Shown here piece after piece: positions 14,450-48,822 of a DNA stretch of 64,000 nt. The notes under the pieces were generated by a model that was not told the DNA's origin, did not search any database, and saw only the letters and a program-made list of their open reading frames with translations. How positions within the stretch are numbered: the first letter of the stretch is position 1; each line of letters begins with the position of its first letter. The position numbers and the translations under genes are program-made. Source of the stretch: Cyanidioschyzon merolae (lineage: Eukaryota); assembly GCA_000091205.1 (NCBI GenBank), contig AP006499.2, one strand, 5' to 3'.

Positions 14450-14900
14450 ACAAAATATCAGTGAAATAGAAAATGTCCCGCGACCATGCAGGATCAATGA
14501 GCACCCACGGATAGATGCCTCCCAGGCTTTTTTGACCCGCTGTCTGCTATCGGTTTCAGCTTCTCACTGTACGCTTCGAGCGTGAGGGGATGTCCAACAA
14601 AATTTGGACCCCCAGCTCCTCGGGTCCCGTCTCCAGCACCGCATATCGTCTGATACTGATGGCGGCGTTGAAGTCTCGGTTCATAAACTCCATACGTTTT
14701 GATGCCTCTAGTTGATCTTATCAATGTGCGTATTCCCCGAGCTCGCGCTTTCAGTACCATTTGCTGCTCTGCCAACTCTCCGTGCGTGTCCAATGCCGAA
14801 GCGCTCCGTTGGCTTCTCTCCGTTACGGCCTTCTGAAGCGTACATTCCTGCTCTTTCCATAAGTTTGAACATGAACGCACTTCCTGACGCCTTTAGATGA
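14450..14900 (-). pseudogene. Degraded 3' fragment of the TnpB/Fanzor-like element (copy 4). It retains the RuvC-III motif, is frameshifted, and carries the conserved 3' tail.
   Basis: The minus-strand translation contains RMEFMNRDFNAAISIRRYAVLE. The upstream KARARGIRTLIRSTRGIKTYG aligns to ERRAKVRGLLALVSTTSDGKKRMEF in copy 1. The conserved tail ggaggcatctatccgtgggtgc lies at about 14501..14522 (reverse complement). Confidence 0.6.
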
Positions 14901-15177
14901 TTACTTCCCCGGAGAGAGACGGACTTGCTGAGGGACTATGACATGTATTCCCCGTGTGTCACCGTGTGCTGAACGCATTAGCGATTCGCCCAATGGAGCG
15001 ATCACTGCGTACCAAGATAGAAAATACTCATAGGATGGGGTTGAACCACGGAGCTAACGGAGCAATGGAAAGCAACTGTATCCCTATAGAATTCGCAAAA
15101 GCTCGGGCGCAAGGGGAACGATGAAATGCAACGTTGTCCGATAGAATAGCGTCTCCAGACCTGCAGAGCAAAAGTCT

Positions 15178-15448
15178 TCAATTATTCCACAATGTGGAAT
15201 GGTGTTTTCTGAGCCTTCTATTCGAGTTCGATCGTACATTTAACAGGTTAACTGCTCTGCAAATACCCGGATAAGTTGTGACGGTTTCGTCCGAAGGACG
15301 TCTCATCGACCGAAAACATAAATGGACGTCCCTGTGTTTCATACCGATCGTAATGTTCCAGGAACGCTGTCGTTGCGATTGGAAGGAAGATGCCATTGCT
15401 TGAACGATGACTCTTTTTGAGATTGTATCCCAGTGTTTTCAGGATCAT
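15178..15448 (-). pseudogene. Possible remnant of a DDE transposase (Tc1/IS630-like LKxLGYxxKK...FxDEtsF segment).
   Basis: ORF MILKTLGYNLKKSHRSS...RPFMFSVDETSFGRN resembles the region around the first catalytic D of DDE_3 transposases. It is short and interrupted. Confidence 0.25.
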
Positions 15449-16432
15449 AGGCGCGACTTGGTGAGAAACAGAGACGCCTGTGGCGGCTATTATCGTCGCT
15501 GTTGCTTTCCGAAAATGGTGATCAACGGATCGTTTTCTAAGATCGACTGCAAGCGACCTCTATGAATATCGATCTCTGGCACGGAGTGCATCTACATTTT
15601 TCTTATAGTTTTCGCCAACCATCTGAGTACGTCGGTATGACTGTCCTAAACGAGGAATGCAGTCCTCCTTGGACTGTTCAGAAATGAATGTAAATGCTAC
15701 ATGCAAATCATCTACGATCTACACTATGCATTGCATTGCGATTTCGATCTCCTAGACATCGCAGCGGAAGTGAAACAGAATTTAGTACAAAGACTACAAG
15801 AACGGAAACCTCGGGCCTCTTTGATGGTAGCGTTCACGCATCCGATAGATGCCAATATGACACATCTGGTGAAAAAGCAGCTAAACATTCGCGTCGATTC
15901 GTTTTCTGGGTCTGTTCAGGGCATGGTGCTGGCATGTGCGTGCTGGCACTCACCAGCACTCACTGAACGTTGCTTTGCAGTCGCGAAATGCGAAAGCATC
16001 CCGCTCCAACGCGAGTTCGCGGTGATGAACTTGTCTTCAGCATCGCTTCCAAAGTCCGAATGCGACCAGCAAATGCCTCTTCATGGGAAGCTTGCGGCAA
16101 ATACCATCTCAGTTTGACATGGATGAATTCGTGCTCGACATTTCACGAGTGCAGCGCAAGAGGTCAATTCACTGTCCGCTTACACCTGTGCATGCGACGG
16201 CAACATAGAAACCGGAAACGAGTATTCTGCATTCACAGGAAATACCCTGCAGCATAGGCATCTGGATCCCATCCAATCGTTCAGAGCGCTTTTCCGCACG
16301 GCGCTGCTGAGGGCGCACTGATCCGTAAAACGCTTGGGATGTTTCGGTAGACATCTCGCTGCCTTTCGAGTCGAGCTTGTTGCGAGAGGAAAACCCAGCA
16401 GCCGGGGGACGTTCACGAGTTGCGTTTTTGCC

Positions 16433-16690
16433 ATGAGCGCTGCGCGATCGTCTTCGACGAGCGTGGTGAGTCCGGCAGCGCCGGCGGACCCCTGTGCTAG
16501 GCTCAGGGAGGAGGCGCTGCGCTGCGTCGGGGAAGCCAAGCGCCAGCCTGGGGCACACGATACCTGCCGCGAAAAGAAAGAGTGCTATCGACGCTGTCGT
16601 GACCTTTGGCTGGCCGAAATACGCAAGGCACGACGTGAAGAGCGACTTCCGAACCCGGCGGTGACGGGCCAAACGCCGGACACCAGCTAA
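16433..16690 (+). CDS. Candidate small CHCH-domain (twin Cx9C) protein of the mitochondrial IMS type, about 85 aa.
   Basis: Translation has PCARLREEALRC (Cx9C) ...16 aa... CREKKECYRRC (Cx9C). It lies within a GC-rich block that also produces spurious ORFs. Confidence 0.35.
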   Translation: MSAARSSSTSVVSPAAPADPCARLREEALRCVGEAKRQPGAHDTCREKKECYRRCRDLWLAEIRKARREERLPNPAVTGQTPDTS

Positions 16691-17675
16691 ACCTCGCTCT
16701 GGGTGGTAATCGTCCGCAACCTGTGCGGCCGACTGGGATGATTTCCACGTTGAAAGCACATTTGGACTTTGTTCGCTTTGGGGGAGTCTTCGCAGATCAG
16801 AGCTGTTGTCGTCGAGGCTACCCGCGGCCGCCAGCTCGCTGGTCGGCACTCGAGTCTGGGGCAGCCTGGTGCAGGCGACGTGCTGCGTTCGCTACAGACA
16901 GCGCGTTCTGCGGTGTCAGGACCTTTGTTATTCCAAGACCTCTTCTGGAGCGCAAGGCACCACAAGCGGTAACGAGCATCCAGTAGCAAGCAAGCAAGCT
17001 AGCATAGACGCGCCCCCGATAAAGTGCACATGTGCAAATATGCCTGCAGCGCTGCCGTCGACAACGGACTTGTCTATGTGCAGCCAGTGCATGACACCGA
17101 TATGCGTCCGTTCACGCTTCGTCTGCATCGGGCCAGCAACTGGTCTGATGATATTCTCCAGGCAGCGATTGAGATGAACCTGTCGTGGGGCTGTCTGTTT
17201 ATGGAAGCGCGCCATGTAGGTGTACCTGGCCAAGAGTTGGTCATGGAAACAAGGACGCCTCTCCATTCCGTCGTTTTGCGTCTCGTGTAGTACTCGAATC
17301 CGATATCCACCGGTGCATCCAAGGCGCTACGTTCAATGCCGTGGAGCGTGACCTGGAGACACTGCCGGGTTTCCGCTTCGTGCGTGCCCTTCCTGAGACT
17401 GTTTCGCACCGCGTTTCAACATGTATTCGGGAAGGACGCGTCTTTAACGCTGCTCCTCGGTTCCATCCATCACAGTCTGGTCATGAACAGACACGTCGAA
17501 CGTGCGCAGCAGAAACGGGAACCCCAAAAACATCTCGTTGCGAGGCCGTCTCCGCTGGCTCACAGGCCGTATGATCGCGCATTGCACTACGACCAAGTCA
17601 AGCTAAAAGCATGTCGTTTACCACTCGAGGTCTGTGCGACCGCGCTCTCCAACACACTAGGTATTTTACACAACA

Positions 17676-18398
17676 TCACTTCCACCAGGGCTTCTCACCA
17701 GTTCGAAAGTCGGTCTCCTTCCAGGGTTTGATCTGTACGAACCCGTCATCATCCACTTTGGTATGTGCCAGAGCGAGCGGAAGCGGAGCTGGACCGCGCA
17801 CCACCTTCCCTGTACGATCGTACTGCGAACCATGGCAAGGGCAAATGAACTTGTTCTGTGCTGCGTTCCAAGGCACCACGCAGCCGAGGTGCGTGCAAAC
17901 AGCATTCAGTGCGTAGGTTTCGAGCTCGCCGGCGTCGTTCACAACAAGATACGTGGGCTCCCCGTTCAGGCCTTGCACAAGATCACGAGAGCCGGGGGGA
18001 TGCGTCTTCAGATACTCCTCCTTCTTGATAGGCGTCCCGAGGGCGTCCTTGGCAATCGCGCCGCCTGAACTCTTGTTCTTCGACGGCGGCATGAAGTAGC
18101 TTGCGTATGTGCTCAGCATGATGCTTGCTGGGAGTCCAACTGAACCCAAGAGAATGAGGTTCAGCAGCGTGCGCTTCCCCATATCTGGTATGTAGTCGTC
18201 ATCGGAGCCCGAGGAGCCGCCACCGTCGCCACCGCTTCCGCTCCCTCCACGCGCGTTATCAACTGTACTCGGCAGCGCATACGTCATGCGCAGTGCCACA
18301 CGCTTCCTGCCCAGCGTTGTATGCTGACGTTCGACCGTACCAGGATAACACCGAGGCACCGTTCTAAACGTAAGGCTATTTGTTGTAAGCACGAACAT
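17676..18398 (-). CDS. petC: Cytochrome b6-f complex Rieske iron-sulfur subunit (PetC). This is the nuclear-encoded precursor with an N-terminal targeting extension.
   Basis: [45 protein letters not shown] contains both Rieske boxes (CTHLGC, CPCHGS) in the b6f-type context. The N-terminal extension is consistent with a transit peptide followed by a membrane anchor. ATG start verified. Confidence 0.9.
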
Positions 18399-19289
18399 TA
18401 TCCAGCGTTATACACAACAATGAAACTGCGAGTTGCAATCAAGTAAGAACGCAAACGTTCATGCAACACGAACGGAAAAATCGTTTCGTGATCATCGACG
18501 ATGGGCGGCAGCGTGCTCGCGATGCAGGGCTTCGAAGGATCGCGGCGTTCGGTGCAGCGGAATCGGGATGCCAGAGACGCCAGCACACTTAACCTTTCTG
18601 TGCCTGTGCTGGAAAAAAAGAACGCAGCTATCTCTTTGAGAGACATCAACATCTGGGAATCACTGTGGTAAATGAAGGCCAGCCACTTACTTTGAGTGTA
18701 GTGCTAGCAACTGATGGTCCCGTAACTGAGCTCCAGCACTCACCAGTTGTCAGCGAACTCATACTCTACCCCCTAGGTGGAAGGTCCAGCGAACCAGATG
18801 CGCACACGGGACCAGTGTTACGCGTACCTAATCACTGGTGGGTGCCAAGCACAGACCCGAGTCGCCAACCGACGGCAACGCTTTCCATGTACGATCACGC
18901 AGGAGAGAGGCGGCTCCCAGGATTCATCGTAACAGCCAAGTTTCTCCAATGTGTTGTGAAGCGAAAGCAAGTTTTGCATCCGCAGGCTGTCCGAGCACAA
19001 ACTGACAACGAGACCCAGTTCTACGTCAGGTGAAGCATGCCTCGAGCAGACGCCGTCTGCGGTACGGCAACGCCGTTCTGTTTCTGTGCTACGACAGCAC
19101 CGGCGCTACAAGCGCTATTGAGGCGGATGTTCACGGGCAGGCACTCGGCGCCCGATAGCACGTCTGAAACACCATTACATCCGAGAAGAAGTATGGGTTA
19201 TGAAACTTGGACGTAAGGCGTGGAATGACGAAAGTTCCACCGCGCGCAGGCATCAAGCGCACAGAGTCGCGGCACGCTCGCCTGTGTGA

Positions 19290-19935
19290 GAAGTTTTCAC
19301 ATGGAACAAAATCCGCTGCATTTGCTGTTGCCGCTGATTTTTCTCCAATGACAAAACGTTTACATTGTACTTGGATTCCAGATAGCGAGATGGATGGGTA
19401 TAGCTGATCGAAAAAGTGTCCATCATGATGCACTCTACCTCCATGCTCCGTTCCTTATACTTCCTTTCGGATGTACAGATCGTTTTGTGCGTTCTGTAGT
19501 GCGACCGAGTGCCTGCTTTGGGCACCCGCCTTAGCGCCTATACCACTGGGACGGATGCATCATGGAGATAGAACAGCGTTGCCATACCACTGAGGGCGAC
19601 GGATCGAGGAACGCTTTACCTGATACAGCGTTGGAGTCCAGAATAATTCTGGGAGCCTGTAGGCTAAACAGACAGAACTTTTGGCTGCGAAAGCACGAAC
19701 CGATATACTAGGAGTCTACTGCGATCTGGGCGACGACCAAACACAGCATCCCGCATCTAGTCCCAGAATGAACCGCGTTGCGGACGAGCTGCTCAGGTCT
19801 CGCCACAGCGCCCGCTACTGGGGGGAGCACGAAGCACGAGTCCGGGAGACTCGTCCGGCTCGCGGGACTTTTCGCCTAGAGGGAGGATTCTTCAGAATAT
19901 GGAAACCTTTTCCGCCTTTTCAAAGTTTATCGTAG
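19290..19935 (+). repeat. Dispersed repeat family A, copy c. It lies about 400 bp upstream of the start of TnpB/Fanzor-like element copy 1.
   Basis: Homologous along its whole length to 5420..6060. Minus-strand small ORFs in both copies are also related (MEVECIMMDTFSI vs MELEERCIKMDAFSI). Confidence 0.7.
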
Positions 19936-20318
19936 AAGGGGAAAGAAATTGCCGTATCGTTGCTCGCTAGTCGTGAGTCTCTTTTCTTTGTTCAACATAG
20001 CGCAGTCGATTTGCGCACCAGGGAGATCTGTCAGTTTCGAGTCACGACGCGTATGCTGCCGTTGAAGGGAAACGCGATCCTGATCAATAGCGTGCTGCTC
20101 TAATGTGCAAGTTGTACTTGCGTTAAAGACGTGGCAAAGTACAGTTCTTCAGTTCATTTGTGTTTCAAACCTCAAACAAGTGTATTCAACTGTTTTTTCG
20201 CAGTATATAACTGAAGCGTTCAAAGTCCGTTACAAAAAATAAAGAAGGAAAGTCATGGAAAACCAAGTCGACGATCCTGGAGGCCCAGTGTGGCTGGCCG
20301 CCAGAAAAAAAACAAAAA

Positions 20319-21776
20319 AATAGTGCCGAGTCCAGAAGAAAGCGAAGTGAAAAAGAAGCATTAGGGGAGGCTCTACGTCGAAGGCAGCAAGAAAGACGTC
20401 TGTACAACGAGATGGCGGTGAAAGCCTGTCTTCGTAAACATACCAAGGATCCGTACAAGGAAAAGTTGCGAGGCGCTATCAGAAACCGTGTCGAGTTCTA
20501 ATCCATGAGTATTATAAAGGCGTCATCAGTACGAATGCATTTGGTGTCGGAGATGTACGGAGACGTGACGCACATGGAAACAGTCGAGGTTCCGGATGCG
20601 TTTTCCGACAAGACTTCTATTCGTCACCTGATGCTTGGTACAGGGGAATCGTCGACGAAAAAAGAGCTAGTCCATGCCTTCCACGAAAACTTTGCAGATT
20701 TCCGCTTCGAGGGTACTCGATACAAGGGTGACGGAAGTATTTACACATACGGGGCGATGAAGTACATCACGAACCTGAGGAACCATTTGACTATGAACCC
20801 GGAGCGTTTCATGATACGCACCGTCTTTGCGCTGTACCCGGGACTGTCTCGCAAAGGAGTATGGGCGATTATCAATGGGATCACGAACGATCGCAAGCAT
20901 GAAGATGACAAGGAGGCGGATCTCGCGACGAAGAAAGTGCAGGATAACGACTCTGTCGTTCACGCGGACCCTGGGAATACGAATATCATAACCATCGCAG
21001 CACCCAAGCGTGGGGAAGATGGTACTGACGGTACCTTGCGTCAGAAAGATATGTGTCTTTTGAGGTTCTCGAGAGCAAGATACTATCGAGAATCCGTTAT
21101 AATGAATGCGAGAAAGAAAATCGACACATGGAATGCAGGAATGAAGGATCACCTGGAAGCTTTGAGGGAGGTGACGAGCCACGGGGCGGACTTTACAGCT
21201 TCTCGGAAATTCATGGAAGTTCGTGTTGCTCATTGGGATGCGCTGTAGAAAGAATATACAAAGCCCCGGCGGGCTCGTTTGCGTATGAATTTGTATTGTG
21301 GGAGGCAGCGTGCATTCGCAATCTTTTTCAATGAGTTGCGTGCCCTGAAGGAGGACGAGCGTCAAAGTCTCGTAGTAGCATACGGAGCAGGGCGCTGGAA
21401 GACCCAAAAAGGATGTACACCAGCTCCAACGACAAGAACGTACAAGGAGTGCGCACGGCGTTTTGTTACGGTGCCTGGAGATGAGTTCCGAACATCGTAT
21501 GTGCATCATGAACTGTGATGTACGCTTCAGAGAGTGGAGATGGAAAAGTGCCAGAGGAGCCCTGAGGATATAAAAAAGTACGGAGCGCTGACAGATGAGC
21601 AAATGGAAAGGAGGGCGAAAGTTCGAGGATTGCTTGCATTAGTAAGTACAACCAGTGATGGCAAGAAACGTATGGAATTCGTGAATCGTGACTTTAATGC
21701 CGCCGTCAATATAAGGAGATATGCGGTGCTGGAGAATAGACCTCCAAAGAAGACACAACAGGACTTAATTGGATAA
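20319..21776 (+). pseudogene. TnpB/Fanzor-like RNA-guided-nuclease homolog ORF of copy 1, interrupted by three nonsense codons. Read-through or a recently inactivated gene are both possible.
   Basis: See the element entry. At the TGA position, copy 3 has GGG and copy 4 has GAA, so the ancestral codon was probably GGA (Gly). Confidence 0.6.
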
Positions 21777-21905
21777 TCACTCAAGGTGGAATTATATGAG
21801 ACAATATTGGAAGCGGTAGTAGGTGGCCGGTCCAAAAAACTAAGAGGCGTCTGCACGTCAGCTGAAGATGTCTAGTCTAGGGCGGGTCACTCGCCGCTAT
21901 TGTAC
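20319..21905 (+). mobile_element. Near-full-length TnpB/Fanzor-like element (copy 1). A single reading frame of about 485 codons carries RuvC-I-like and RuvC-III motifs and is broken only by three in-frame stops. It is followed by a conserved non-coding 3' tail of about 130 bp.
   Basis: RuvC-I-like motif SVVHADPGNTNIITIAAPKRGEDGT (Asp codon at 20967..20969). RuvC-III motif KKRMEFVNRDFNAAVNIRRYAVL (Asp at 21690..21692). All segments 20319..20498, 20502..21245, 21249..21515 and 21519..21776 are in frame 0. In-frame stops: TAA 20499, TAG 21246, TGA 21516. Confidence 0.65.
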
Positions 21906-22389
21906 ACGGCCGCTGGTGGCAACGTTTTTCGTTTGAAAGGCGTTTGCTGTCTGTCGATCGAAGCCACCATAGGCTCACACCTAACTAGAAGCCCCGGTTT
22001 GAAACTGCATAGGCAGCGTATAGAGATCCAAATCGTCGACAAGCCACTTCTTCTCAATGCTCGCGAGCGAGCAGTTGCAAGTATTTGGAGGACACACTCG
22101 CTCGAACTAACGCACCTGTCACTGCGAGCGGTTCCACATCATGGTTGTTGTAGCGCACTTACTCTACGTGACGGTTTCCGTGCACGCAACTTTAGACGAG
22201 ATTCTTAGCGGTTGGGGTCGGAACTTAAAATGCGTCCTAGATCGGAGGCGCCCTGGCCTCGCAGGGCCTAGAGACACCCGGCCTCGACCAAGGTCAGGCG
22301 GGCACGTTCTTGACGCATTATTCGCACGCAAGCTTCCTTTTCCACCCAAGGACTCGTTTGATGGGTGGTGCACGGCGCCACTTCAGACG

Positions 22390-23748
22390 ATGGCTTCGCT
22401 ACCTTCTCCGTGGCCCATCGTGGCGATAAAGAAGCGTCGGCGAATCGTCTTTGCAGGGTTCTCGGTGACGCGGGCAGTTTTCAAAAGGATAACTGAGTCG
22501 TTTCAGCAGCGCTGGCTGGCGAAAACCGGAGAAGATGTCGACTTCGGTCTGAGTTTTGCGGGATCTGGTATTCAGTCACGGGCCATTCGGGACGGTCTTC
22601 CAGCGCATGTATGCTGCTTGGCGCTCGTGGATGATATCGAAAAGCTCGCACGCGGGGGCTTCATTGACCAGGCGTGGCGGATGCGAACCCCCTACAACGG
22701 TATTGTTGCCCGCTCGCTGACGGTGGCTGGATACCGTCCTCAGTTGGACGCATCTCCGTCGACGGATAAGATATGCGAGTGCTTCTACGATATTTTGGCG
22801 AAGAATCTTGCAGTCATTACAGCGAATCCGAAATCAGCGGGAGCTGCACGGTGGAATTTTTTAGGGTTGTGGTCCGCGGCGCGCTCCGGAACTATGCGCT
22901 TCGAACCGACATTTATTCAGAATGCGCTGCAAGCGAGGGACTCGACAAAGAACGCGATCCTCCATCGAATGCTCGAGACGGAGAATGACTGGATTGCTTT
23001 GGCCTTTCTCAGAGAGGTGTATCTCCGGGCTCCGGTGCTCCCGCGGGACGGACGCGATGCCACCGATGTCTTTCTGCGCCAGGAGCTGGGTGACGTGCTA
23101 ATAACGTACGAGAATGAGGCCATTTTGGCTCAGATGCGGGGTCTTCCCCTCGCGTACAGCATACCATCAGCGGAAGCCAACTGTCTCATTGAGTTCCCCA
23201 TCAGCGTAGTGGACCGGAACGCAGACCGCGAGAAAGTTCGGGATGTCGCTGATGCTTTTGTGGAATATTGTTTCAGCGACGAAGCACAACAGATTTTTGC
23301 TGACTACGGATTTCGCCCGGTTTCTGAGCGAGTGTTTCAACAAGTTCGGGAAAGATTTCCATCCCCCAGTATTTTAGAGACTGTAGATGAACACTATGGT
23401 GGATGGAGTGCCGTCATGCAGAAATTTTTCGTCACCGGGGCAGTCTTCGATATTCTTTTAGAGCAGGTATCACTTGAGCTCTTGCGTAGAAGGAGAAGTC
23501 AGAGGCGATGGATCTTCGGTGGCAGGCGCGGCCGAGGTGCACAGCAGGGCAACATTCCACACCACAAGCACGCGAACCTGGTCATGGACTCTGACGAATC
23601 CGAGCAAAGCACCAACTATGCATCAATGCAAATCCCGAGAACGAATCTCGTCGTCGTCGAATACGAGCAGCAGCAGCAGCAGCAGCGTCTATGTCGAGAC
23701 GGGATATCTGACGAGCGTTGCATACGCGCGGCTTCTTGGCTGCAGTAA
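22390..23748 (+). CDS. sbp: Sulfate/thiosulfate-binding protein (Sbp/CysP-type periplasmic binding protein homolog). It is probably the substrate-binding component of a plastid sulfate ABC transporter, and has a C-terminal tail of about 100 aa of unknown nature.
   Basis: [26 protein letters not shown] aligns with the bacterial Sbp signature [40 protein letters not shown]...[45 protein letters not shown] matches the Sbp N-lobe. The domain ends near [10 protein letters not shown]. ATG at 22390; an upstream ATG at 22141 is also possible. Confidence 0.78.
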   Translation: [452 protein letters not shown]

Positions 23749-23831
23749 GCCGACGACGACGAACAGATACTGATTGCACGTATCCAACGAATAGGTCGCA
23801 GACGGTCCAACTGCTCGCTACGCAACCAGCT

Positions 23832-25838: not shown

Positions 25839-25999
25839 AGAAGCACCAAGTCCATAACTTCCTCTTTCTATATATCAGGATGATTACGAGTCCATCAGAG
25901 GCTCCAGCACGCCATCCGTACGGGGCTCTGAAGCCACGGAAACCGGGACCCCGAGACCAGTCGCTACTGTGGTCATGCCTGATGCGGGATATGTATCCA

Positions 26000-29650: not shown

Positions 29651-29802
29651 CTAGACCGAAGGACTCTTAGAAGACGACGCTATGATGTTCACGTTGGATA
29701 CACGCCCACGCTCTCCTGTGCAAGCGTCAAACACCATACTCGCAATGCTTCGGCTCACGAGCACTCCTACGAGCACTGCTGCTGCTGCTGCTGCTGCTGC
29801 GA

Positions 29803-32761: not shown

Positions 32762-33034
32762 ATGACTGCGACTGGTTTCGCAGAGGCAGTGAAGCCCACA
32801 AACCTTCTGAGCGCGCTCCAGGGAAACAGGGTGTCCGTGCGCCTCAAATGGGACCTGGAGTACACCGGCCTCCTCGCATCGTATGACTCGTACTTCAACC
32901 TGGAGCTGGAGCATGCGGAGGAGCTTCAGCCGGACGGCTCAAGCCTTCCGCTAGGCGACATGATCATTCGCTGTAATAACGTTCTTTATATCCGCGACCT
33001 TCGATCCACAGTGCCGGTCCCGCCTCTATCTTGA
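32762..33034 (+). CDS. SNRPF: Small nuclear ribonucleoprotein Sm-F (SmF/LSm6-like Sm fold).
   Basis: LLSALQGNRVSVRLKWDLEYTGLLASYDSYFNLELEHAEE...GDMIIRCNNVLYIR closely matches SmF ([26 protein letters not shown]...ILIRCNNVLYIR). About 90 aa. ATG at 32762; the track begins at an upstream TTG. Confidence 0.8.
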   Translation: MTATGFAEAVKPTNLLSALQGNRVSVRLKWDLEYTGLLASYDSYFNLELEHAEELQPDGSSLPLGDMIIRCNNVLYIRDLRSTVPVPPLS

Positions 33035-33187
33035 TCAGCATTCTTTCGGATCCATTCCGAACGTTTGCGATGCAGCAGTTTGTCGCCGTATTCCGAGCAG
33101 TTACCGCAGGGCTGAACCCCAGGGATGCACAGATCGAGGGATACTCCCTTGCAAATCATTCAATCCACAGACGCATCCGTCTCGGGG

Positions 33188-34084
33188 TTATACGCTTACG
33201 GTTTCCTTCGCTTGATACGCCCTTACGATATCGAGGAAAGTGGGTTTCAGACTCGCCCCACCGACCAGAAAACCATCGACGTCAGGCTGCGCAGCAAGTT
33301 CAAGACAGTTTTCCGGGGTGACCGAGCCACCGTAGAGAATTCGCATCTGTGACGCACAGGCTTCGCTGACCTGCCGACGAATCCAGCTGCGGATTTCCGA
33401 GTGGGCCTCTTGTGCCTGAGCCGCCGTCGCAACCTTGCCAGTTCCAATGGCCCAGACAGGCTCGTACGCAATAACCACTTTGGCCCAGTCGTCGGCGCTG
33501 AGATGTGCCCTTACCGCCGAGAGCTGCCGCTCATTGACCTCCCGGGTGCGGCCGGCTTCGCGCTCCTCTAAGAGTTCCCCTATGCACAGAATCACGTGCA
33601 CGCCTTTGTCGATAGCGTATTTTGTTTTGCGACCAATGACGTCATCGCTTTCCCGTATTTCCGGTAAATGACGCCTCTCCGAATGCCCTAGAATCACGTG
33701 ACTAAGCCCGATATCCCGGATCATTTCGACCGCAACCTCACCGGTGAACGCTCCCGGTTTTCCGACCCAGCAGTTCTGCAGTGCTACCCCGAAATCAGGC
33801 CGCAAAATCGATCTCGTCAACATGGCATAAACCGATGGCGGTGCGACAACGACTTCGACCCTGTTAAAGTCGATGTTTTTCCCAGCGTTGAACGCTTCGC
33901 ACAGCTCCTGGACGGACTGCTTCGAACCGTTGCATTTCCAGTTGCCACCCACGAAGAACTTCCGGGCGCTTTGGGCGGACATGAATAGACGTGTACGTGC
34001 TGTTCTTACGATGCGCAAGCGCTGTGCGTAGCTCTCCGCCTTGCTACTGACTGCGCGGCTTGGCACACCGAGCGTCACAAACAT
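33188..34084 (-). CDS. TPI: Triosephosphate isomerase with an N-terminal extension of about 35 aa (probable plastid transit peptide; an internal Met marks the mature/cytosolic-type start).
   Basis: ARKFFVGGNWKCNG, AYEPVWAIGTGKVAT, ILYGGSV and GFLVGGASLKP are canonical TPI motifs. Catalytic His in GHSERR and Glu in AYEPVWAIGTG. Confidence 0.95.
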   Translation of the reverse strand: MFVTLGVPSRAVSSKAESYAQRLRIVRTARTRLFMSAQSARKFFVGGNWKCNGSKQSVQELCEAFNAGKNIDFNRVEVVVAPPSVYAMLTRSILRPDFGVALQNCWVGKPGAFTGEVAVEMIRDIGLSHVILGHSERRHLPEIRESDDVIGRKTKYAIDKGVHVILCIGELLEEREAGRTREVNERQLSAVRAHLSADDWAKVVIAYEPVWAIGTGKVATAAQAQEAHSEIRSWIRRQVSEACASQMRILYGGSVTPENCLELAAQPDVDGFLVGGASLKPTFLDIVRAYQAKETVSV

Positions 34085-35269
34085 GTTTGGAGTACGAACC
34101 CGTCGTTGCTGGCCACTGATGCAGCCGATGAGCGCAAGTCGCCGAGACTATCCACGGTGTCCAGTAATGTGCGTGTTTATACATTTTTTTCTTGATCGCC
34201 TTTCGAGGCAGCGCATACGACGCGCTCGCCCCGTTCATGCCAGCGGTGACGCACGCTACGCTGGAAGCGATCGCTGCGATGACTACATTCCAAGTCCGAG
34301 ACCCTTTTCCACGCATACCGAAGAGACAGTAAACTTTAGCAGCGTATTGTGTGAGATGTGTCATGCAGCTGCCGAATGCCATTCCGTGAATGGCCTCAAA
34401 TGGCGGAGGATTTGTTATTCGAACGGAATCGATTGTTTCACGCGAGATGTTCGGTGAGCTTTCAGCACGGTTTTTGTGGATCGAGTTGCGAACGGCCGTT
34501 GCCAAGTATTATCGTCCGTGAATCCAGCGCAATGAATCGCTTCGTCAAAGCGTTGATTGAACCTGAAAGACCGAAACCCTGCAAGAATACCGTGTACGCA
34601 TATACTATAAATAGCGATAGAGGAAGAACGGAGGCTCGTACGTATGCATCAGATAAAGGTATCCGTTAGTTTACAAAAACCTATTTGATTGCGCCGCAGA
34701 TCTGCTTTACTCCGGTGATGGCACGAGTGCCAGCGGCGAACTGGTCAAAGCAGTTGCCCCGAACAGGCGGCCGAGAACTCTCCAACTGCGTATGAATCGA
34801 CAAGTCCCTAATGCTCCATTTCAGAACCTCGAGGCTGTATGCCTGGGAAACCTTCGAAAGAATCTCAGAGCTGGAACAGATGGCAACGTTTCTTGTTTAA
34901 TTGTTATCGGACACGACAAAGGCGGTCACCAGAAGCGTACAACTCGGAGTTGGTTCATCCCCGGTGCAGTGTATAGCAGGAGATCGACATCACGATGCAA
35001 CGCTTTGTATAGATCGTGGATGAATTACGTGCTGGACATTAATTCCTTACTGAACATTGTAAGAGAGACCGCATTCCTCCCTCAGGTCAGTCATACAACA
35101 GTGCTCAGATGGTTGCGGAATAACGGAATAAACATGTATGTGCAGTCCACGCAAAGAACTGATGTTCCTTAAGTGTGCTTGCAGTCAATGGTAGAAAACG
35201 ACCAATAGATCACGCTCTAAAAAGCAAAAGTGACGCTGATAGCCGCCGCGGGCGTCTCTGCTTCTCAAT

Positions 35270-36400
35270 AGCTTGAGCGTGTTGACCAAAAAACATGGGG
35301 ATGCAGTCGCCAAGGAGAGTGCTAGTTCATGCACTGCCGTCTTGTACCGAAATAGCAACGACAGAGTTCCTAGAACGTCGGGATCCGTACGAAGCACTGG
35401 AACCTCGAGTTGCTTTTTTAAGGTGATAAGACTTCCTCTTGACGAAACGGTCAGAGCGTGTACGGGTATTCGCGGAGCAGGGAGCACGATGTATGCACTA
35501 CCGAACTTTAAGAGAACGAGGACACTATCTGTTCTAGCTGGAGTGGATTCTTTTCGCGGCCTCAGTTCCGCTAGTAGACAAGGTTCATACAATAGCTCCA
35601 AACACTGTATCGAATCATTGAAGACTTTACCCTGACGTCTGGCGACGTCCGCCCATTGGACAAAGTGGCATTTTCCAATTTCCCTAGCGGTCGGGCTTTC
35701 GCCGATTTTATCGGGGCAGAGCTGATTTTCATTCCTACGTGCATTCCGTGGTTCAGCCACATCGAAGGAGTGTTTTTACCCTGAAACGTCATGATAGTTT
35801 CAAGTGCGAATCCCTGAAGCGTTCAGCACATGGTGACACACCGGGTACATTTTATCTGTCTTGCGCAAATCCTTCTCCCTCTGAGAAAGTCCTCACCAAG
35901 GGGCATCAAGAATTGCGTTCATCTAAAGAAATAAACCATCCAACGGATGAGCTGAAGTGTGCACTTCAGAAGGTCGAGATGCAACGAAGGCAGCGGAGCG
36001 CTCCGGCGATCGAAAAGCACAGAGCGCCGCTAGAGCGCTAAATGCCACAGAGGGCGCGATTTCAAGGACTTCTGCTACTGATGCGTTCCATCGTCGTCAA
36101 TAAACGCGTGGAGTTCGTGAACCGAGACTCCAACGCTGCCATCCATATCAGAAGATATGCAGTGCTGAGGACGAGACCCAAGGAACTGACGAGAGCCAAC
36201 TTTATGGGGCAACCTCTCAGTGTCAAAGTGTACAAGGGCAAGCTGAACCCCCACAGCAGGGGGCCGGTCAAAAACGCCTGGGAAGCGTCTGCACGTGGGT
36301 ATTCATTTACTCTGTATGGCCGCGAAACGTTTCCGCTTCCTTGACTGTGGAAGCGAAATCCGTGGTGACTTTCACAGCATTTTGGCGCGCTTTCGAGCAG
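35270..36400 (+). pseudogene. Diverged, truncated copy (copy 2) of the TnpB/Fanzor-like element. It has the RuvC-III motif and the conserved tail fragment, and ends about 130 bp upstream of the TLK gene.
   Basis: KRVEFVNRDSNAAIHIRRYAVLRTRPKELTRANFMGQPL (36042..36344) resembles the C-termini of copies 1 and 3. The upstream ...FFKVIRLPLDETVRACTGIRGAGST resembles ...FFNELRALKEDERQSLVVAYGAGRW of copy 1. The tail ggaagcgtctgcacgtggg resembles ggaggcgtctgcacgtcag. Confidence 0.55.
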
Positions 36401-36527
36401 CGCGCGCCAGATCCGCCGATGATCGCTGTGTTGCGCCTGGCGAGCAGCTCCGCGTGGCAAGACAGCGAGTTGTGTCGCGCGGCTGCTGCGCTTATCCAAG
36501 CCTGGGTTTCTTTGAACATAGTGCTCA

Positions 36528-39227
36528 ATGAGCAGCGTATTTGAATGCCATACTGAAATTGAGACAGAATGTGTTCATGACGAATCCTATGGAACCTTCC
36601 GCGAACCTCTAGTCTATCGCAGTCAAAGACTATCAACGCAGACGCTACGCGAGAAGCTAGCCTTGTTGGAGCGGCGGCTCAATCCACGCCCCTGGGATGC
36701 GCGTACTGCCCAGAGCGAAGTGCTTCTAGTCAACAAAAAACCTCGCTTTTGTGTGGAGGGTTTTGAAAGGCTTTCTGGGAACTACTCTGGAGAAGAACTG
36801 GTGACAGCAGGAGCTGGTGCGCCGGCGGACTCTGCCGCGAAGCTCGCGACGCCAGAAGCGGAAACCTGGGTGTATTGCGCCAAAGCCGCTGCAGATGGTT
36901 GCGGCTCTTCGGTGTGTCGCCCAGGACAGAGTGATTCCAAGTCAGGTAGTGAAACTCGGCGAACTCCGATACCGCGTGGCGAACGAGTGCCTGGGAAAGT
37001 CGATGTCGTAGCAGCGGCGACGATAACGTCAGGGGCCGCAGAATGCGCGGATGCCTCGAGTGTAGATGCGAGCGGGAAACACACAGACCAGCTGCATCCT
37101 GGTCAATCTTCGTCATGTACGGACAACAGGTTCCAGGCGGAGATTCACGACCGTACTCCAGAACATAGAAACGAGAACGATCTGCGCTGCCCTGAGAGCT
37201 GTCACCGCCGCGGGTGTGAAGCTGGCGCAACGCCACCGCCCGGTTCGCAGTCAACGAGTCCCGGCAACTCTTGCAGCGTTGCGGAGACTATTCTAACCGT
37301 CTCGCGATTCGAAGGTAGAAGTGGATGCCAGACAGAGCTCGGCTCGCAGACACCGTCGCAGACTCCAGCAGCAACCGTCGATCGTAGCAGTTCGCCGGTA
37401 GCTTCCAACAGCGGGGAGAGAAGCTGTCGAAGCGAGCCGGCTCGCCATGCGCAAGAGTGGACGACCCCTGCCGCGGTCGCGGGTCAAAGCACCATGAATA
37501 GGCCCCGAAAGAGAAAAGCGCGCGTGCCTGCTGCGGAGGAGAACAACGGCCTCACACTGGATCAGTTTTTTTCGCGAGCGGAGAAAATGACGCCAAGTGC
37601 ATCGGCCGGAGCCTGCACGTTTGAGATGGATTCCATTGAGAGCGGGAGCAGCAGGGTGAGCGCTGCGGATGACGCTCCTGGATCGCAGAGCATCGCGGGT
37701 CAGCAGGACGCGCGGCTTGTCAAAGCCACCGCCTCTGTGGAAGAAATCCACAACCAGTATGTGCTCCAAATCGAAGGGCTCTCCACACAGCTCGAGGAGC
37801 TACGTGCTGTGGCGTTCGAGCTCGAGTCTACACAGGAACGCCTCTCCCAAGTAGAACGCACCGCCGGTGCACTCCGAAATGCGCTGATGGATGCCCTGCG
37901 GGAGCAAGGCCGACTCGAGCGAGGGCTGAACGCCCGGCTAGTCGCTGAAAAGTGTCAGAGGTTAGGGCAACCAGTTATTGCTCGCAGCGGCACTGCCCTG
38001 CAAGAAGTGTGGGAGGACGGATCTGAGTTTCAGCGTCTGAGTGAGCGTCAAAACGTCATCGCCGCGGAGCGAGAATCCATCGAGAGGTCACGGAAAGAGC
38101 TTAGCAGACTGCGCCGCCCCGCTCCTGGTCAAAATGATGCCACTGCAGATGCCCCGCAATGGCTGTCTATGTACATCGCAGAACAAGAAGAGATCTTTCG
38201 CGTGCGAATTCAGCTTCTGAAACGAGATGAAGCCGCTCTCGCCGAAGAGAGAGCGAAACTGGAATGCGAACGCGCAATGCTTCTGCGTGAACTGAAACGC
38301 GTTCGCGATGAGAGTGCCTCTCGATTCCGAGAATTTCCACTGCTTGCCGATCGGTATCTTCTTCTCCGCTTGCTCGGTCGCGGTGGCTTTTCTGAAGTCT
38401 GGAAAGCCTACGATATCGAGCAGGCCCGGTATGTCGCATGCAAAATCCACCAGCTCCACGCCTATTGGAGTGAATCGCGGAAGAGCAACTACATCAAGCA
38501 CGCTACCCGCGAGTATCGAATCCATGCGACGCTCAAACATCCCCGTATCGTGAGCTTGTACGATGTGTTTGAGATCGACGACCACACCTTTTGCACAGTA
38601 CTCGAGTACTGCGGTGAGGCCTGTGACCTCGACACCTATCTCCGGATGAACCATCACGTATCGGAGCGCGAGGCCAAGTCCATCATTGCACAGGTGTTGA
38701 GCGCTCTCCTCTATTTGAACTCACAACCCAAACGGATCATTCACTACGATCTCAAGCCTGGTAACATTCTGTACACAAACGGAGAGGTCCGCATCACGGA
38801 CTTTGGCCTCAGCAAGATCATGGACGAGAACCTGAACACCATGGATGGAATGGAACTAACTTCGCAAGGCGCTGGCACCTACTGGTACTTGCCCCCAGAG
38901 TGCTTTGAGGGCATCTCTGCTACGAGCGGCGCCACGGGTCCTCGAATCAGCAACAAGGTGGACGTCTGGAGTTGCGGTATCATCCTGTACCAGCTTCTTT
39001 ACGGTGTCAAGCCATTCGGAAACGACCTTTCCCAGGAACGAATTCTGCGTGATGGCACGATCCTCAAAGCGTCGGATCGAGACCTCTTCTTTCCGGCAAA
39101 GCCAGCGGTATCCACGGAGGCCAAAGATTTTATCCGTCTATGTCTCACGCGAAATCAAATGGATCGACCCGATATTCGCTCTATTGCGATGCACCACTAT
39201 CTTCGAGGGACTATAACGATGTCCTAA
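36528..39227 (+). CDS. TLK: Tousled-like serine/threonine protein kinase (TLK). It has a long low-complexity/coiled-coil N-terminal region and a C-terminal kinase domain.
   Basis: YLLLRLLGRGGFSEVWKAYDIEQARYVACKIHQL...NYIKHATREYRIHATLKHPRIVSLYDVFEIDDHTFCTVLEYCGEACDLDTYL...IHYDLKPGNILYTNGEVRITDFGLSKIMD is nearly diagnostic of TLK. ATG start verified. Confidence 0.9.
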   Translation: MSSVFECHTEIETECVHDESYGTFREPLVYRSQRLSTQTLREKLALLERRLNPRPWDARTAQSEVLLVNKKPRFCVEGFERLSGNYSGEELVTAGAGAPADSAAKLATPEAETWVYCAKAAADGCGSSVCRPGQSDSKSGSETRRTPIPRGERVPGKVDVVAAATITSGAAECADASSVDASGKHTDQLHPGQSSSCTDNRFQAEIHDRTPEHRNENDLRCPESCHRRGCEAGATPPPGSQSTSPGNSCSVAETILTVSRFEGRSGCQTELGSQTPSQTPAATVDRSSSPVASNSGERSCRSEPARHAQEWTTPAAVAGQSTMNRPRKRKARVPAAEENNGLTLDQFFSRAEKMTPSASAGACTFEMDSIESGSSRVSAADDAPGSQSIAGQQDARLVKATASVEEIHNQYVLQIEGLSTQLEELRAVAFELESTQERLSQVERTAGALRNALMDALREQGRLERGLNARLVAEKCQRLGQPVIARSGTALQEVWEDGSEFQRLSERQNVIAAERESIERSRKELSRLRRPAPGQNDATADAPQWLSMYIAEQEEIFRVRIQLLKRDEAALAEERAKLECERAMLLRELKRVRDESASRFREFPLLADRYLLLRLLGRGGFSEVWKAYDIEQARYVACKIHQLHAYWSESRKSNYIKHATREYRIHATLKHPRIVSLYDVFEIDDHTFCTVLEYCGEACDLDTYLRMNHHVSEREAKSIIAQVLSALLYLNSQPKRIIHYDLKPGNILYTNGEVRITDFGLSKIMDENLNTMDGMELTSQGAGTYWYLPPECFEGISATSGATGPRISNKVDVWSCGIILYQLLYGVKPFGNDLSQERILRDGTILKASDRDLFFPAKPAVSTEAKDFIRLCLTRNQMDRPDIRSIAMHHYLRGTITMS

Positions 39228-39288
39228 ATGGTCACCCGAAAGCCAGTGGTGTCCTGAATTTCGCCTGCAAACCCATGGAGCTCACAAC

Positions 39289-40209
39289 CTACAGACCCAC
39301 AAGATCGAGATGATTCTTCACAAACGCGAAATCACCCGGGTTCGTGAGCTCAAGCGGCGTGCGAATAGAATTGCACGACAACACCATGAGCTCGATCTGT
39401 GCGTCGTGGAGCAACTCGTTCAACATTGTGGACAGAATGTATTCCTTGTGCGCGTACACGTCGTTCTCGTCAGTGCTACACCGTTTCACGCTCTGCTGCT
39501 GCTGCTGAAGATGATGATCGTCACGCAGTGCCTCCAGCTCGGACAGAAAGCGTCGAAACCGCTCGTCGGCCCGAGCGAAGATGCTCGTATCGTGGAAGCC
39601 GAAAACGTTCATACTCGTGAGCTCGTCGCCAGTATAGCGACCTTCCTCAATATCTTCGAAGCCGATGTTGTACTGTTCGACAATTTCTAAAACTCGGTGT
39701 CGCTCATCTGTCTGAACGATGGCACGGTTAACTCGCCCTTCCTTGGGCAGCACTTCGCGCAACTTGTATCCAGGCATGCACGCGGTTTTCGCCGCCGTAA
39801 TGTGATTGCATACCAGTGACAGAGCTGCCACTCCGTATAAGGAATCACCATTCAGCACTATGAAAGGTCCATGAATATGCTCCCGCGCCGCAAGCAGTGC
39901 GTCCACGGTGCCCAGCGGTCGTTTTCGCCACGCCGGTACCCGTTGCACGCAAAAGTATACTGGGAGCCCATAAAACTGTTCGCCAATGAGGGCGTGAATC
40001 GGTAAGTGTGTAGCCTCCGACACCACGAAAACGAGACTCGATATCGCTGGATAGGCCTCGCAGAGTTGACGAACAGAGAGTTCCAGGAGGGTCTCGCCGT
40101 GGCGACCCACCTCCTGGAGGCACTTGATGCGCCCGCCAAACCGGGAAGAAAGCCCTGCTGCGAGGTACACCGCTTGAATTGTCGGTTTCACCGCTTCATT
40201 CTCCCTCAT
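39289..40209 (-). CDS. Sugar-phosphate nucleotidyltransferase family protein (NTP_transferase fold; precise substrate unknown).
   Basis: N-terminal AVYLAAGLSSRFGGRIKCL resembles the GxGTRxxP-type nucleotidyltransferase signature. LNGDSLYG resembles the downstream conserved region. It is convergent with TLK and only about 60 bp separates the two ends. Confidence 0.5.
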   Translation of the reverse strand: MRENEAVKPTIQAVYLAAGLSSRFGGRIKCLQEVGRHGETLLELSVRQLCEAYPAISSLVFVVSEATHLPIHALIGEQFYGLPVYFCVQRVPAWRKRPLGTVDALLAAREHIHGPFIVLNGDSLYGVAALSLVCNHITAAKTACMPGYKLREVLPKEGRVNRAIVQTDERHRVLEIVEQYNIGFEDIEEGRYTGDELTSMNVFGFHDTSIFARADERFRRFLSELEALRDDHHLQQQQQSVKRCSTDENDVYAHKEYILSTMLNELLHDAQIELMVLSCNSIRTPLELTNPGDFAFVKNHLDLVGL

Positions 40210-40379
40210 GGGATTGTAAAGAATCAGAGTAAACGCTCAACAAGTGGCAGTGCCGACCAGCGTGCCACGTTGTCGCCGCAGGCGCTGGGGCGCGAGAGGT
40301 AAGCACCCGCGGACAACTGGCTAGTCTGCGCTGCGTATCGACGGCCTGAGGAGGTGCGCGCGCGCGCGCCCGCGCCTCT

Positions 40380-40620
40380 CGGCGGCATTTTGACACGATA
40401 TGCCTGTGATACCTCTGATGCTACTGCCTCTGATGCTATTGCTGATGCTGGTGCCTCTGATACCTCTGATGCTGGTGCCTCTGGTGCATCTGGCGCTGAT
40501 GCCTCTGATGCTGGTGCCTCTGATGCCTCTGACGCTGCTGCCTCTGATCCTAGTGCTGATACTAGTGCTGATGCTGCGTTTCTCTGGGTGCTGCAGACAC
40601 ACGCGGTGTCGAGAAATCGA
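40380..40620. repeat. Cryptic low-complexity tandem repeat, approximately (GATGCTGGTGCCTCT)n. It translates to D/A/S/G-rich repeats on one strand and L/M/P-rich on the other.
   Basis: Visible 15-18 nt periodicity. Both strands remain open, which is an artefact of the repeat. Confidence 0.7.
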
Positions 40621-41189
40621 TGACGCGACCCGCATATCCTTCCCTCGGTTATGGAGTAGATTTGCGATGTGTGTAGCGCTAATGCAGATTTGTAAATTCG
40701 CTCTTAATGCAGATACTTGACAAAAGGGTGGCGCGCTCGCGCTAGAACGCAAGAGCGAAACAAACTCGCACAAGCGCACCTCTGATCTGAGACAACGAGG
40801 CAGTATTACGGGAAGACACTCATGAACAGCGAATCCGCATTCCGAAACGCTTGGCAAACGGATCGCTCTCGCCTAGCACGTGTCATGCACCGTACCTGAA
40901 AGCGATGTTCCTGCTGACTTTTCGTGAGGTGCTCTAGCCGGCCCCGAGCATAGCACTGTTCTCGTGCAGAAAGCAGTGTATGGTGTCTAGCGCGCCCGCT
41001 TCCAGTACCGATCGTGAGCATATGGACTATTCCTGGCATGAGACTCCGAGCCCCAGGCCGCAGTTCCCAGATCAGCGGTCGATATGCAAAACGCTCCGTG
41101 ATTGCTGCCACAATCACTCTGCAGATCACATCTTCGATCATAAGGGAAACGCGCATGAGAGCGCGTCGTTCCCACGGTCCTGAAGCAGC

Positions 41190-41888
41190 ATGCTCCGCCC
41201 GCACATCATAAGGTATCTGTGCTGTGGAGCCGCCAGCACCCCGATGCTGGGGCAGCAGCGCGAACTCGCGGCTTTTGTGGAGTCCGCGCACCCCGAAACA
41301 CGCCTGCAGGGCCATGGGCACGGCAAAAGCAGCCACCGTGTCTGGCAGAAAGCCACAGCACCACTTTCATGGCTTGTCGTGGAGAATTTCGTTTCCGGTT
41401 TACAGCAACTCGGAATGAGCGTACAAGGCGTGTGCACCTCGTTTCGCTACGATACTTATAGATGAGTTCCGAACATCGTATACACACCACGAACTGGGGT
41501 GTACACTTCAGAAGGTCGAGCTAGGAAAGTGCCAGCGGAGCCCTGAGGATATAAAAAGCACGGACCGCTGACAGAAGCGCAACTGGAAAGGAGAGCGAAA
41601 GTTCGTGGACTACTTGCATTAGTGAGTACAACCAGTGACGGCAAGAAACGTATGGAGTTTGTGAATCGTGACTTTAACGCCGCTATCAATATCAGGAGGT
41701 GTGCGGTGCTGGAGACGAGACCTCCAGAGTTGACACGAGAGAACTTTATTGGACAACCTCTCAAGTCGAATTATATGAGACAAGATTGGAAGAAGTAGTA
41801 GGTGGCCAGTCGAGAAAAACTGGGAGGCGTCTGCACGTCAGTGGGAGACGTTTCGTATAGGGCGCTGGTCGCCACTACTGCACACGCC
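41190..41888 (+). pseudogene. 3'-truncated, frameshifted copy (copy 3) of the TnpB/Fanzor-like element. It retains the RuvC-III region and the full conserved 3' tail, and ends about 17 bp before the uS9 start codon.
   Basis: Nucleotide identity to copy 1 is visible from about 41400 to about 41888 (DEFRTSYTHHELGCTLQKVE...KKRMEFVNRDFNAAINIRRCAVLETRPPELTRENFIGQPL). There is a frameshift near 41465. The tail runs ...ggaggcgtctgcacgtcag...ctactgcacacgcccg. Confidence 0.65.
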
Positions 41889-41904
41889 CGTAGTCTTTCT
41901 CACA

Positions 41905-48582: not shown

Positions 48583-48822
48583 ACGGAACAACGTGCTCGA
48601 CCCGCACTGTTTCTAACCTGCCGTGTGTGCAGATGATGCGCTTCCGGGGACACAGCAAACGTCGAAGAACACGATCCGCACTGTTTCTAACCTGCCGTGT
48701 GTGCAGATGATGCGCTTCCGGGGACACAGCAAACGTCGAAGAACACGATCCACACTGTTTCTAACCTGCCGTGTGTGCAGATGATGCGCTTCCGGGGACA
48801 CAGCAAACGTCGAAGAACGTGT
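48583..48822. repeat. Minisatellite: three contiguous 74-bp units plus a partial leading unit. Unit: cgcactgtttctaacctgccgtgtgtgcagatgatgcgcttccggggacacagcaaacgtcgaagaacacgatc.
   Basis: Units begin at about 48603, 48677 and 48751 and are near-identical. It lies about 230 bp downstream of the Brix gene. Confidence 0.85.

Follow-up and report, generated by a model that had tools for sequence, protein, structure and literature searches.

The stretch of DNA considered here, 64,000 nucleotides of nuclear chromosome 17 of Cyanidioschyzon merolae 10D that we call the window throughout, very probably (at about 85%) holds, in its intergenic DNA, a cluster of dead relics of DNA transposons carrying Fanzor1, a eukaryotic TnpB-like, RNA-guided nuclease. 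A sequence-only reading of the window had recognised four copies of one element family, three of them described as truncated to the same 3' portion, and had attributed them to a TnpB-type element. Every family copy in the window is dead. In the positions that we assign to these four copies, CMe-1A denotes one Fanzor1 family already described in C. merolae (Bao & Jurka 2013, Mobile DNA 4:12).

14423..15790, minus strand: copy 1, derived by deletion from a mariner-type transposase and Fanzor element and now decayed
19348..21950, plus strand: copy 2, a CMe-1A copy with both ends
34951..36389, plus strand: copy 3, a second case of the deletion derivative seen in copy 1
41417..41930, plus strand: copy 4, a CMe-1A copy reduced by 5' truncation to its last ~0.5 kb

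Using self-BLAST of the window at sensitive settings, together with repeat finding, we could align all four copies as homologues (E values for the family from 4e-18 to 5e-131), with identities of 69-82% over lengths of 218 bp to ~1.27 kb. Copies 2 and 4 are 82% identical over 480 bp (E 5e-131) and copies 1 and 3 are 69-70% identical over ~1.27 kb, divided between two blocks (E 5e-68 and 1e-56); copy 1 matches copy 4 at 73% over 226 bp and copy 2 at 69% over 218 bp, and copy 3 matches copy 4 at 69% over 355 bp. All pairs thus exceed the level (less than 60% identity over less than 100 bp) at which the sequence-only reading would have given up its four loci as one family. The 3' region shared by the copies was said to encode RuvC-III, and six-frame translation recovers the motif (M/V)EF(V/M)NRD(F/S)NAA from each of them (4/4). 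The positions first given were roughly right, apart from the end of copy 1, the extent of copy 2 and the start of copy 4, and the list of four was incomplete, as tblastn and BLAST with the family consensus reveal further relics in the window.

The published CMe-1A family comprises ~150 copies that are ~80% identical to a ~3-kb consensus, without inverted repeats and with target duplication undetermined, and is classed as "unknown", with no terminal inverted repeats; its first 635 bp, at the 5' end, are a separate repeat named TE-N2_CMe, and some copies elsewhere in the genome are reported to have intact open reading frames (ORFs) (Bao & Jurka 2013). We took the 3169-bp consensus from the supplement of that paper, in which a Fanzor1 gene of 734 codons and then a short structured tail follow the 635-bp TE-N2_CMe module, and compared it with the window by BLAST. 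Copies 2 and 4 match it with 83-89% nucleotide identity and, on this measure, are members of CMe-1A; copies 1 and 3 match at 69-71%, over about 2738-3085 of the consensus only, and class by the same measure as relatives outside the family proper. A 3.2-kb interspersed repeat with a truncated ORF, present in 253 copies, making up ~5% of the genome and transcribed, was described by Nozaki et al. 2007; from copy number, size and the reported similarity to WSV486, this repeat is probably CMe-1A. The suggestion, made from local density, that the family is a major repeat of this genome agrees with these published figures (~150-253 copies, ~5% of the genome).

The assignment to Fanzor1 follows from the catalytic residues, from the fold matches and from the listing of Bao & Jurka 2013, and the initial attribution to one TnpB/Fanzor-type superfamily is borne out by the consensus match, the RuvC residues and the fold. 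The conceptual protein of copy 2 has 192 relatives in metagenomes, including intact proteins of 676-702 residues with a lysine-rich N-terminus, and the RuvC triad (D398, E569 and D636) is invariant in an alignment of ten homologues. The Fanzor1 motif D-X(125,275)-[TS][TS]-X-X-zinc finger-X(5,50)-RD, which gives the D/E/D triad, is present, with zinc ligands that, as read from the sequence, look like HH..C..C and not like four cysteines. Copy 2 retains "HADPGNT" (RuvC-I), "DEFRTSY" and "NRDFNAA", whereas copies 1, 3 and 4 retain only the last of these motifs. In a Foldseek search of PDB the six best matches are all Fanzor1 structures (SpuFz, GtFz and PpFz; E 7.7e-6 to 8.5e-4, probability 0.98-1.00), and the match after these six has an E value of 0.14. 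A scan of viral contigs returned no Fanzor relatives.

Copies 1 and 3 carry more than a Fanzor end, and can be divided as follows (tail scores refer to the covariance model described below).

14423-14557, minus strand: degenerate tail of copy 1, 9.9 bits, not significant
14513-14853, minus strand: Fanzor C-terminal remnant of copy 1 with RuvC-III (14853-14513 is consensus 2739-3082, 68.9%)
about 14968-15696, minus strand: IS630-like transposase pseudogene of copy 1 (tblastn with intact transposases, E 2e-13)
about 15761-15790, minus strand: possible left inverted-repeat relic of copy 1 (21/30 matches, hand count)
35032-35775, plus strand: IS630-like transposase pseudogene of copy 3 (tblastn, E 1e-14)
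35947, plus strand: deletion junction of copy 3
35947-36296, plus strand: Fanzor C-terminal remnant of copy 3 (consensus 2737-3088 at 70.8%)
36245-36389, plus strand: tail of copy 3, 30.4 bits, E 1.6e-5

Copy 1 had been ended at 14.9 kb, but its homology to copy 3 spans 14471-15753 and so reaches 0.9 kb upstream of the Fanzor remnant, the extra sequence being a transposase pseudogene joined, in both copies, to the last ~120 Fanzor codons and the tail. These pseudogenes are full-length, as tblastn with intact relatives covers residues 12-262. A scan of metagenomes for relatives had returned 80 loci, cited here by L numbers; the intact transposases of L007 and L010 match DDE_3 (PF13358; E 7e-26 and 1e-27), and that of L007 scores 131 bits against the IS630 model of NCBIfam (NF033545; cut-off 100). 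Copies 1 and 3 therefore both carry, as pseudogenes, the DDE_3-type transposase with N-terminal helix-turn-helix that characterises IS630/Tc1-mariner elements. The search for a transposase partner that had been proposed thus ended at an IS630/Tc1-mariner DDE enzyme, neither IS607-like nor of Helitron type.

The arrangement before deletion is seen in locus L021, in which a transposase remnant is followed by a full Fanzor gene. Copy 3 aligns with this locus in two parts (34967-35947 with 1908-2889, and 35947-36212 with 4817-5085) between which 1.93 kb are missing, and the 1.9-kb deletion of copies 1 and 3 corresponds to about codon 10 to codon 610 of Fanzor. In consensus coordinates, the Fanzor part of copy 1 starts at 2739 and that of copy 3 at 2737, as against a break at 2665 in copy 4; the alignment of copies 1 and 3 runs unbroken across the junction, and their flanks have no homology to each other by self-BLAST. 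Because the junction is shared and the flanks are unrelated, copies 1 and 3 are, as far as alignment can tell, two insertions of one internally deleted derivative at sites 20 kb apart; as they are ~70% identical to each other and to CMe-1A, they are old. The claim that three copies had been cut to the same 3' portion does not hold for this pair, which results from one internal deletion that kept the 5' half of a larger element. The sequence points to a lineage in which a transposase gene lay directly upstream of Fanzor within one inverted-repeat-bounded element; in copies 1 and 3 the ends of this element can be located only to within about 20 bp. A 40-bp block that is 88% conserved between the two copies at the junction was also considered and dropped, its rough chance expectation being 0.2-0.4 at 69% identity.

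Such a composite exists intact elsewhere. In loci L006-L010, which come from environmental metagenomes (one contig name contains "BRINE"), a transposase of 301-305 residues lies directly upstream of an intact Fanzor of 699-702 residues, and inverted repeats of 28-31 bp enclose the pair (for example L007 853-4493). At their different sites these elements begin GTTATACTCTG and end GTATA, with TA on both sides, which is compatible with a TA target duplication. Fanzor1 genes are known inside the Tc1/mariner transposons PUl-1, PUl-2 and PGv-1 (Bao & Jurka 2013). Like elements of the PUl-1 type, copies 1 and 3, L021 and L006-L010 have Fanzor1 preceded, in the same orientation, by a DDE transposase of mariner/IS630 type, and the 24-bp repeats and TA of PUl-1 resemble the 28-31 bp inverted repeats and terminal TA of L006-L010; unlike in the PUl-1 type, however, the transposase link in C. 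merolae is seen only as diverged pseudogenes of ~70% identity, with inverted repeats nearly erased. The mariner composite arrangement is thus a candidate origin for CMe-1A, a family described as unclassified.

Copy 2 is a nearly complete CMe-1A copy with the following parts.

19348 to about 19990, plus strand: TE-N2_CMe-like 5' module
near 20002, plus strand: left end of the core
about 20258-21884, plus strand: Fanzor pseudogene, with four in-frame stops in the stretch read
21809-21950, plus strand: complete tail, 107 bits against the tail model

By BLAST, 19348-21942 corresponds to consensus 3-1553 at 83.0% and 2124-3169 at 87.2%, and the 570 bp between (1554-2123) are missing, with a junction at 20895-20908. 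Copy 2 had been taken as strongly diverged and as keeping only a fragment of the tail; it is in fact 83-87% identical to the consensus, the diverged copies being 1 and 3 (~70%), and its tail is complete, scoring 107 bits against 109 for copy 4. The right breakpoint of the deletion falls within a 75-bp tandem repeat. This repeat, of 25 residues, is located inside the Fanzor ORF just upstream of RuvC-I, and its number of units varies between copies (L004 7146-7450, L005 6465-6693 and window 20895-20966). The insertion of copy 2 is also present in a metagenome contig that is 97.6% identical over 11.9 kb, and no target duplication is visible in the flanking sequence. Compared with the published CMe-1A, copies 2 and 4 share its layout and differ in nothing essential, copy 2 being without consensus 1554-2123 and copy 4 without 1-2664. 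A further repeat, at 18600-19221, lies head-to-head with copy 2 and has a counterpart at L004 4506-5599; the two have their first ~200 bp in common with the 5' part of TE-N2_CMe, and the L004 repeat contains an antisense ORF of 255 residues with a CxC...ET...CP...R pattern which, by eye (Pfam gave no match), resembles the C-terminal zinc knuckle of ORF2 of long interspersed nuclear elements (LINEs).

Copy 4 corresponds to consensus 2665-3137 at 89.0% and, judging from its alignment, is the only true simple 5' truncation among the four copies. It had been started at 41.2 kb; its homology begins at 41417. The frameshift that had been noticed in it is real, the tblastn matches being split over two reading frames.

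41417-41765, plus strand: Fanzor C-terminal remnant with frameshift (tblastn matches in two reading frames)
41788-41923, plus strand: well-preserved tail, 109 bits

The right end of copy 4 runs into a host gene. Its terminal hairpin and (TGG)n end (41886-41930) contain the annotated ATG (41905) of BAM82075, the precursor of mitochondrial ribosomal protein S9, and the first ~8 codons of S9 (MLRWWWWC) derive from this (TGG)n end. There is no other in-frame ATG near the N-terminus, and the same N-terminus is present in metagenome relatives. Copy 2 ends 191 bp upstream of a co-oriented gene for a sulfate-binding protein and copy 3 ~139 bp upstream of a co-oriented gene for a tousled-like kinase. 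These positions could mean that 3' fragments are protected in a compact, deletion-prone genome when they come to overlap the 5' end or promoter of the host gene that follows, protection extending to no more than the portion adjoining the gene. We regard this as rather unlikely: the cases are three, a shared orientation in all three has a chance of ~1 in 8, the downstream gene is convergent in the related locus L004, and the S9 start codon is that of the annotation, not a mapped one.

The tail shared by the copies was analysed as the last ~140 bases of 30 non-redundant copies. In its predicted fold a closing stem (CAGUAGU/ACUACUG) encloses internal hairpins, and a terminal hairpin of ~10 bp comes after it. 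Single tails fold better than shuffled sequences (z -1.9 to -4.0; copy 4, z -2.95), while that of copy 1 folds no better than shuffles (z +0.38). One stem alternates G-U with G-C and is rich in G-U, which fits an RNA of the sense strand, and in the closing stem of copy 3 three pairs are changed on both sides and still pair (printed alignment, by eye). A covariance model built on the tail finds exactly four tails in the window, with 109 bits for copy 4, 107 for copy 2, 30.4 for copy 3 (E 1.6e-5) and a non-significant 9.9 for copy 1. There was no match to the tail in Rfam, and among the distant relatives L003, L006-L010 and L031 the model found none at E <= 0.01. RNAalifold on the whole 329-column 3' alignment gives a poor global structure (-4.6 kcal/mol), a coherent fold appearing only from sub-alignments.

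The best reading of the tail is that of a predicted omega-RNA scaffold overlapping the end of the ORF, as in SpuFz1 of Spizellomyces punctatus, whose loci, besides being the best fold match, likewise have a structured non-coding right end that overlaps the ORF end. The proposal that the right end carries the omega-RNA can thus be kept in a qualified form: the shared piece consists of RuvC-III and a structured, omega-RNA-like tail, for which the support from covariation is weak to moderate.

Loci of SpuFz1 that lack the ORF, the "ghost" omega-RNA loci, work in trans (Saito et al. 2023, PMC10432273), and they give a published precedent to the earlier idea that ORF-less right-end copies can matter; as in C. 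merolae, ORF-less right-end copies there coexist with full copies. The ORF-less 3' pieces of C. merolae might likewise be kept as working ghost loci, providing guides for a Fanzor made by the intact copies reported elsewhere in the genome, and the tail of copy 4 does score (109 bits, z -2.95) like the tails of full-length copies. We nevertheless consider this very unlikely, given that in copies 1-4 conservation of the tail does not exceed that of the coding sequence beside it (copy 4, 81% for the tail and 91% for the coding sequence; copies 1 and 3, 57-61% and 70-72%), that the last 57 bases are the least conserved segment across 21 full-length copies, and that the tail of copy 1 has stopped fitting the model and shows no more folding than shuffles do. 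Moreover, the ghost loci of SpuFz1 show good conservation and still have an inverted repeat at either end, whereas copy 4 is without a left end and the tails of the window copies decay at the neutral rate.

Several observations weigh against our interpretation of the cluster as relics of Fanzor1-carrying DNA transposons with an omega-RNA-like tail. The AlphaFold model of the protein is poor (mean predicted local distance difference test score, pLDDT, 55, and below 50 in the RuvC region), with template modelling (TM) scores to Fanzors of 0.2-0.3. The protein has no match in Pfam (in a copy that did not include the precomputed family PF26935, DUF8286), in NCBIfam or in a sequence search of PDB, where the single sequence and a profile of 10 sequences both returned nothing. 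The putative left inverted repeat of copy 1, located where one would be expected, agrees with those of L007, L009 and L010 at 21/30 positions, with local alignment scores at noise level, and a search for the right inverted repeat of copies 1 and 3 found no convincing one. CMe-1A proper has neither inverted repeats nor a detectable target duplication, which leaves its mobility unexplained, and its putative descent from a mariner-type element depends on one linking locus (L021) and on relics. As for the tail, MAFFT alignments give no significant covariation (the observed score being reached by 119/500 shuffles with the first structure and by 22/500 in the other comparison), and covariation beats all shuffles (0/500) only on the model-fitted alignment, which leans towards the structure.

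The preference for 3' ends had been compared to that of 5'-truncated insertions, a hint which loses its force here: copy 2 keeps both ends, and the 5' module stands alone at four places in the window, so that retention is not specific to the 3' end.

5475-6103, plus strand: solo TE-N2_CMe (consensus 1-636 at 77.4%)
6114-6281, plus strand: partial second TE-N2_CMe (consensus 278-445 at 85.7%)
19025-19215 and 60277-60529: further TE-N2_CMe-only pieces (consensus BLAST)

A replicative or one-ended mode of spread, rolling-circle (Helitron-like) or similar to reverse transcription, that starts at the 3' end and often stops early could still produce such fragments. CMe-1A is without inverted repeats or a detectable target duplication, as this mode would have it. 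A stable hairpin of ~10 bp stands a few bases from the right end and is kept in two different sequence versions, all 11 of its pairs being changed on both sides in the alignment fitted to the covariance model. The left flanks of the CMe-1A cores are not unique sequence; they fall into few repeated classes (TE-N2 and at least three others), and every class ends A[T/G]C, most often G[C/A]ATC, a sequence that may be a motif of the target or may already belong to the element as its true start. All truncated fragments with both ends inside the sequence searched (the loci and the window), namely copy 4, L036, L079 and L045/L075, keep the 3' end, with differing breakpoints, in a sample of about five that is too small to decide. 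L079 itself carries two 5'-truncated CMe-1A copies head-to-head (1913-2905, minus strand, and 2957-4010, plus strand), ~50 bp apart, which form a large inverted repeat with both 3' ends outward.

We hold this mode of spread to be improbable all the same. Beside the internal deletions of copies 1 and 3, the two ends of copy 2 and the pieces made of the 5' module only, the 5' part is less conserved than the 3' half, so that the latter is the more easily detected among so few fragments. The features of Helitrons (5' TC, 3' CTRR and RepHel) were not found, the right ends reading ...GTTGTTGGTG.. or ...GTTTGTTTTC with a subterminal 3' hairpin present, and none of the loci showed a Rep or helicase gene. 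Nor are there signs of retroposition of the type without long terminal repeats, as the copies have no poly(A), no duplication and no likeness to the LINE-like 3' end at 18600-19221. A variant in which the family borrows a LINE 3' tail was rejected, since the L004 repeat does not resemble the Fanzor tail at its 3' end and, oriented as it is, would lead one to expect the wrong type of truncation.

We thus return to the relics of transposase-borne Fanzor1 elements. Building on the homology, deletion junctions, transposase family membership, decay and fold similarity given above, the live family would have consisted of inverted-repeat-bounded elements cut and pasted by their transposase; internally deleted derivatives would still have been mobile in trans, with transposase from elsewhere; and Fanzor would have acted as an RNA-guided RuvC nuclease with a guide RNA transcribed from the 3' end of the element. 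The copies have the RuvC-III end and the tail in common through a deletion that spared this portion (copies 1 and 3), near-completeness (copy 2) and truncation (copy 4).

Other relics in the window, found with transposase and Fanzor queries or by self-BLAST, extend the cluster.

408..1663, plus strand: Fanzor-like relic of a more distant sub-lineage (residues 416-663 of P0073, 35-47% identity, tblastn E 3e-35)
12119..12292, minus strand: short Fanzor C-terminal relic (residues 599-656 of P0073, 43%, E 1e-8; 75% nucleotide identity to L003)
13239..14051, plus strand: IS630-like transposase relic, tail-to-tail with copy 1, 65-67% identical to 54107-54922
43505-43663, minus strand: IS630-like transposase relic (transposase tblastn match)
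54107-54930, minus strand: IS630-like transposase relic (tblastn match 54628-54930)

The relic at 408-1663 has no long ORF left and may be cut by the start of the window; it and the relic at 12119-12292 belong to a lineage that is nearer to P0073, a protein from a metagenome, than to CMe-1A. Counting copies 1 and 3, at least five IS630-like transposase relics lie within 64 kb. For the entire C. merolae genome the paper of 2007 gives a count of only eight class II elements, so that either this region is enriched or that count is low.

The origin of the window is given by four long ORFs that match annotated C. merolae 10D proteins exactly: BAM82066 (Rieske subunit of b6/f), BAM82067 (sulfate-binding protein), BAM82069 (CMQ169C) and BAM82073 (tousled-like kinase). 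C. merolae is a nearly intron-free red alga, and the G+C content of ~53%, the long uninterrupted ORFs and the lack of any match in tRNA and Rfam scans of the window are consistent with its chromosome 17. Tandem repeats of near-identical units of 74, 93 and 96 bp at 48598-48819, 59104-59563 and 61104-61583, and a GCT/GAT-rich array (9-27 bp) at 40398-40564, are unrelated to the Fanzor copies.

The family, its Fanzor1 identity and its abundance were already published in 2007 and 2013, and our finding is mainly a re-identification. In the published accounts of the family we found no statement of an IS630/mariner link to the CMe-1-type Fanzors, nor of the overlap with the S9 start; these new parts, the mariner link and the end of copy 4 overlapping a host start codon, are small. 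A bolder combination, in which CMe-1A is a transposase-less descendant of an IS630/mariner-Fanzor1 composite, some ORF-less 3' fragments act as ghost omega-RNA loci for the intact Fanzor copies and one of them at least, copy 4, has been co-opted to provide the 5' end and start codon of S9, an essential host gene, is in our view unlikely as a whole; if it were true, the surplus of 3'-keeping fragments would reflect selection or one-ended copying primed at the right-end hairpin.

The analysis adds two modest points for this family. In C. merolae, Fanzor remnants stand in physical continuity with IS630/mariner transposase genes in decay, an arrangement found intact in environmental samples; and one deletion derivative explains most of the shared 3' portion, which therefore no longer hints at an unusual way of inserting. 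As a model alga that is open to genetic work and capable of homologous recombination, C. merolae would allow an endogenous Fanzor family with a definable omega-RNA-like tail to be tested directly.

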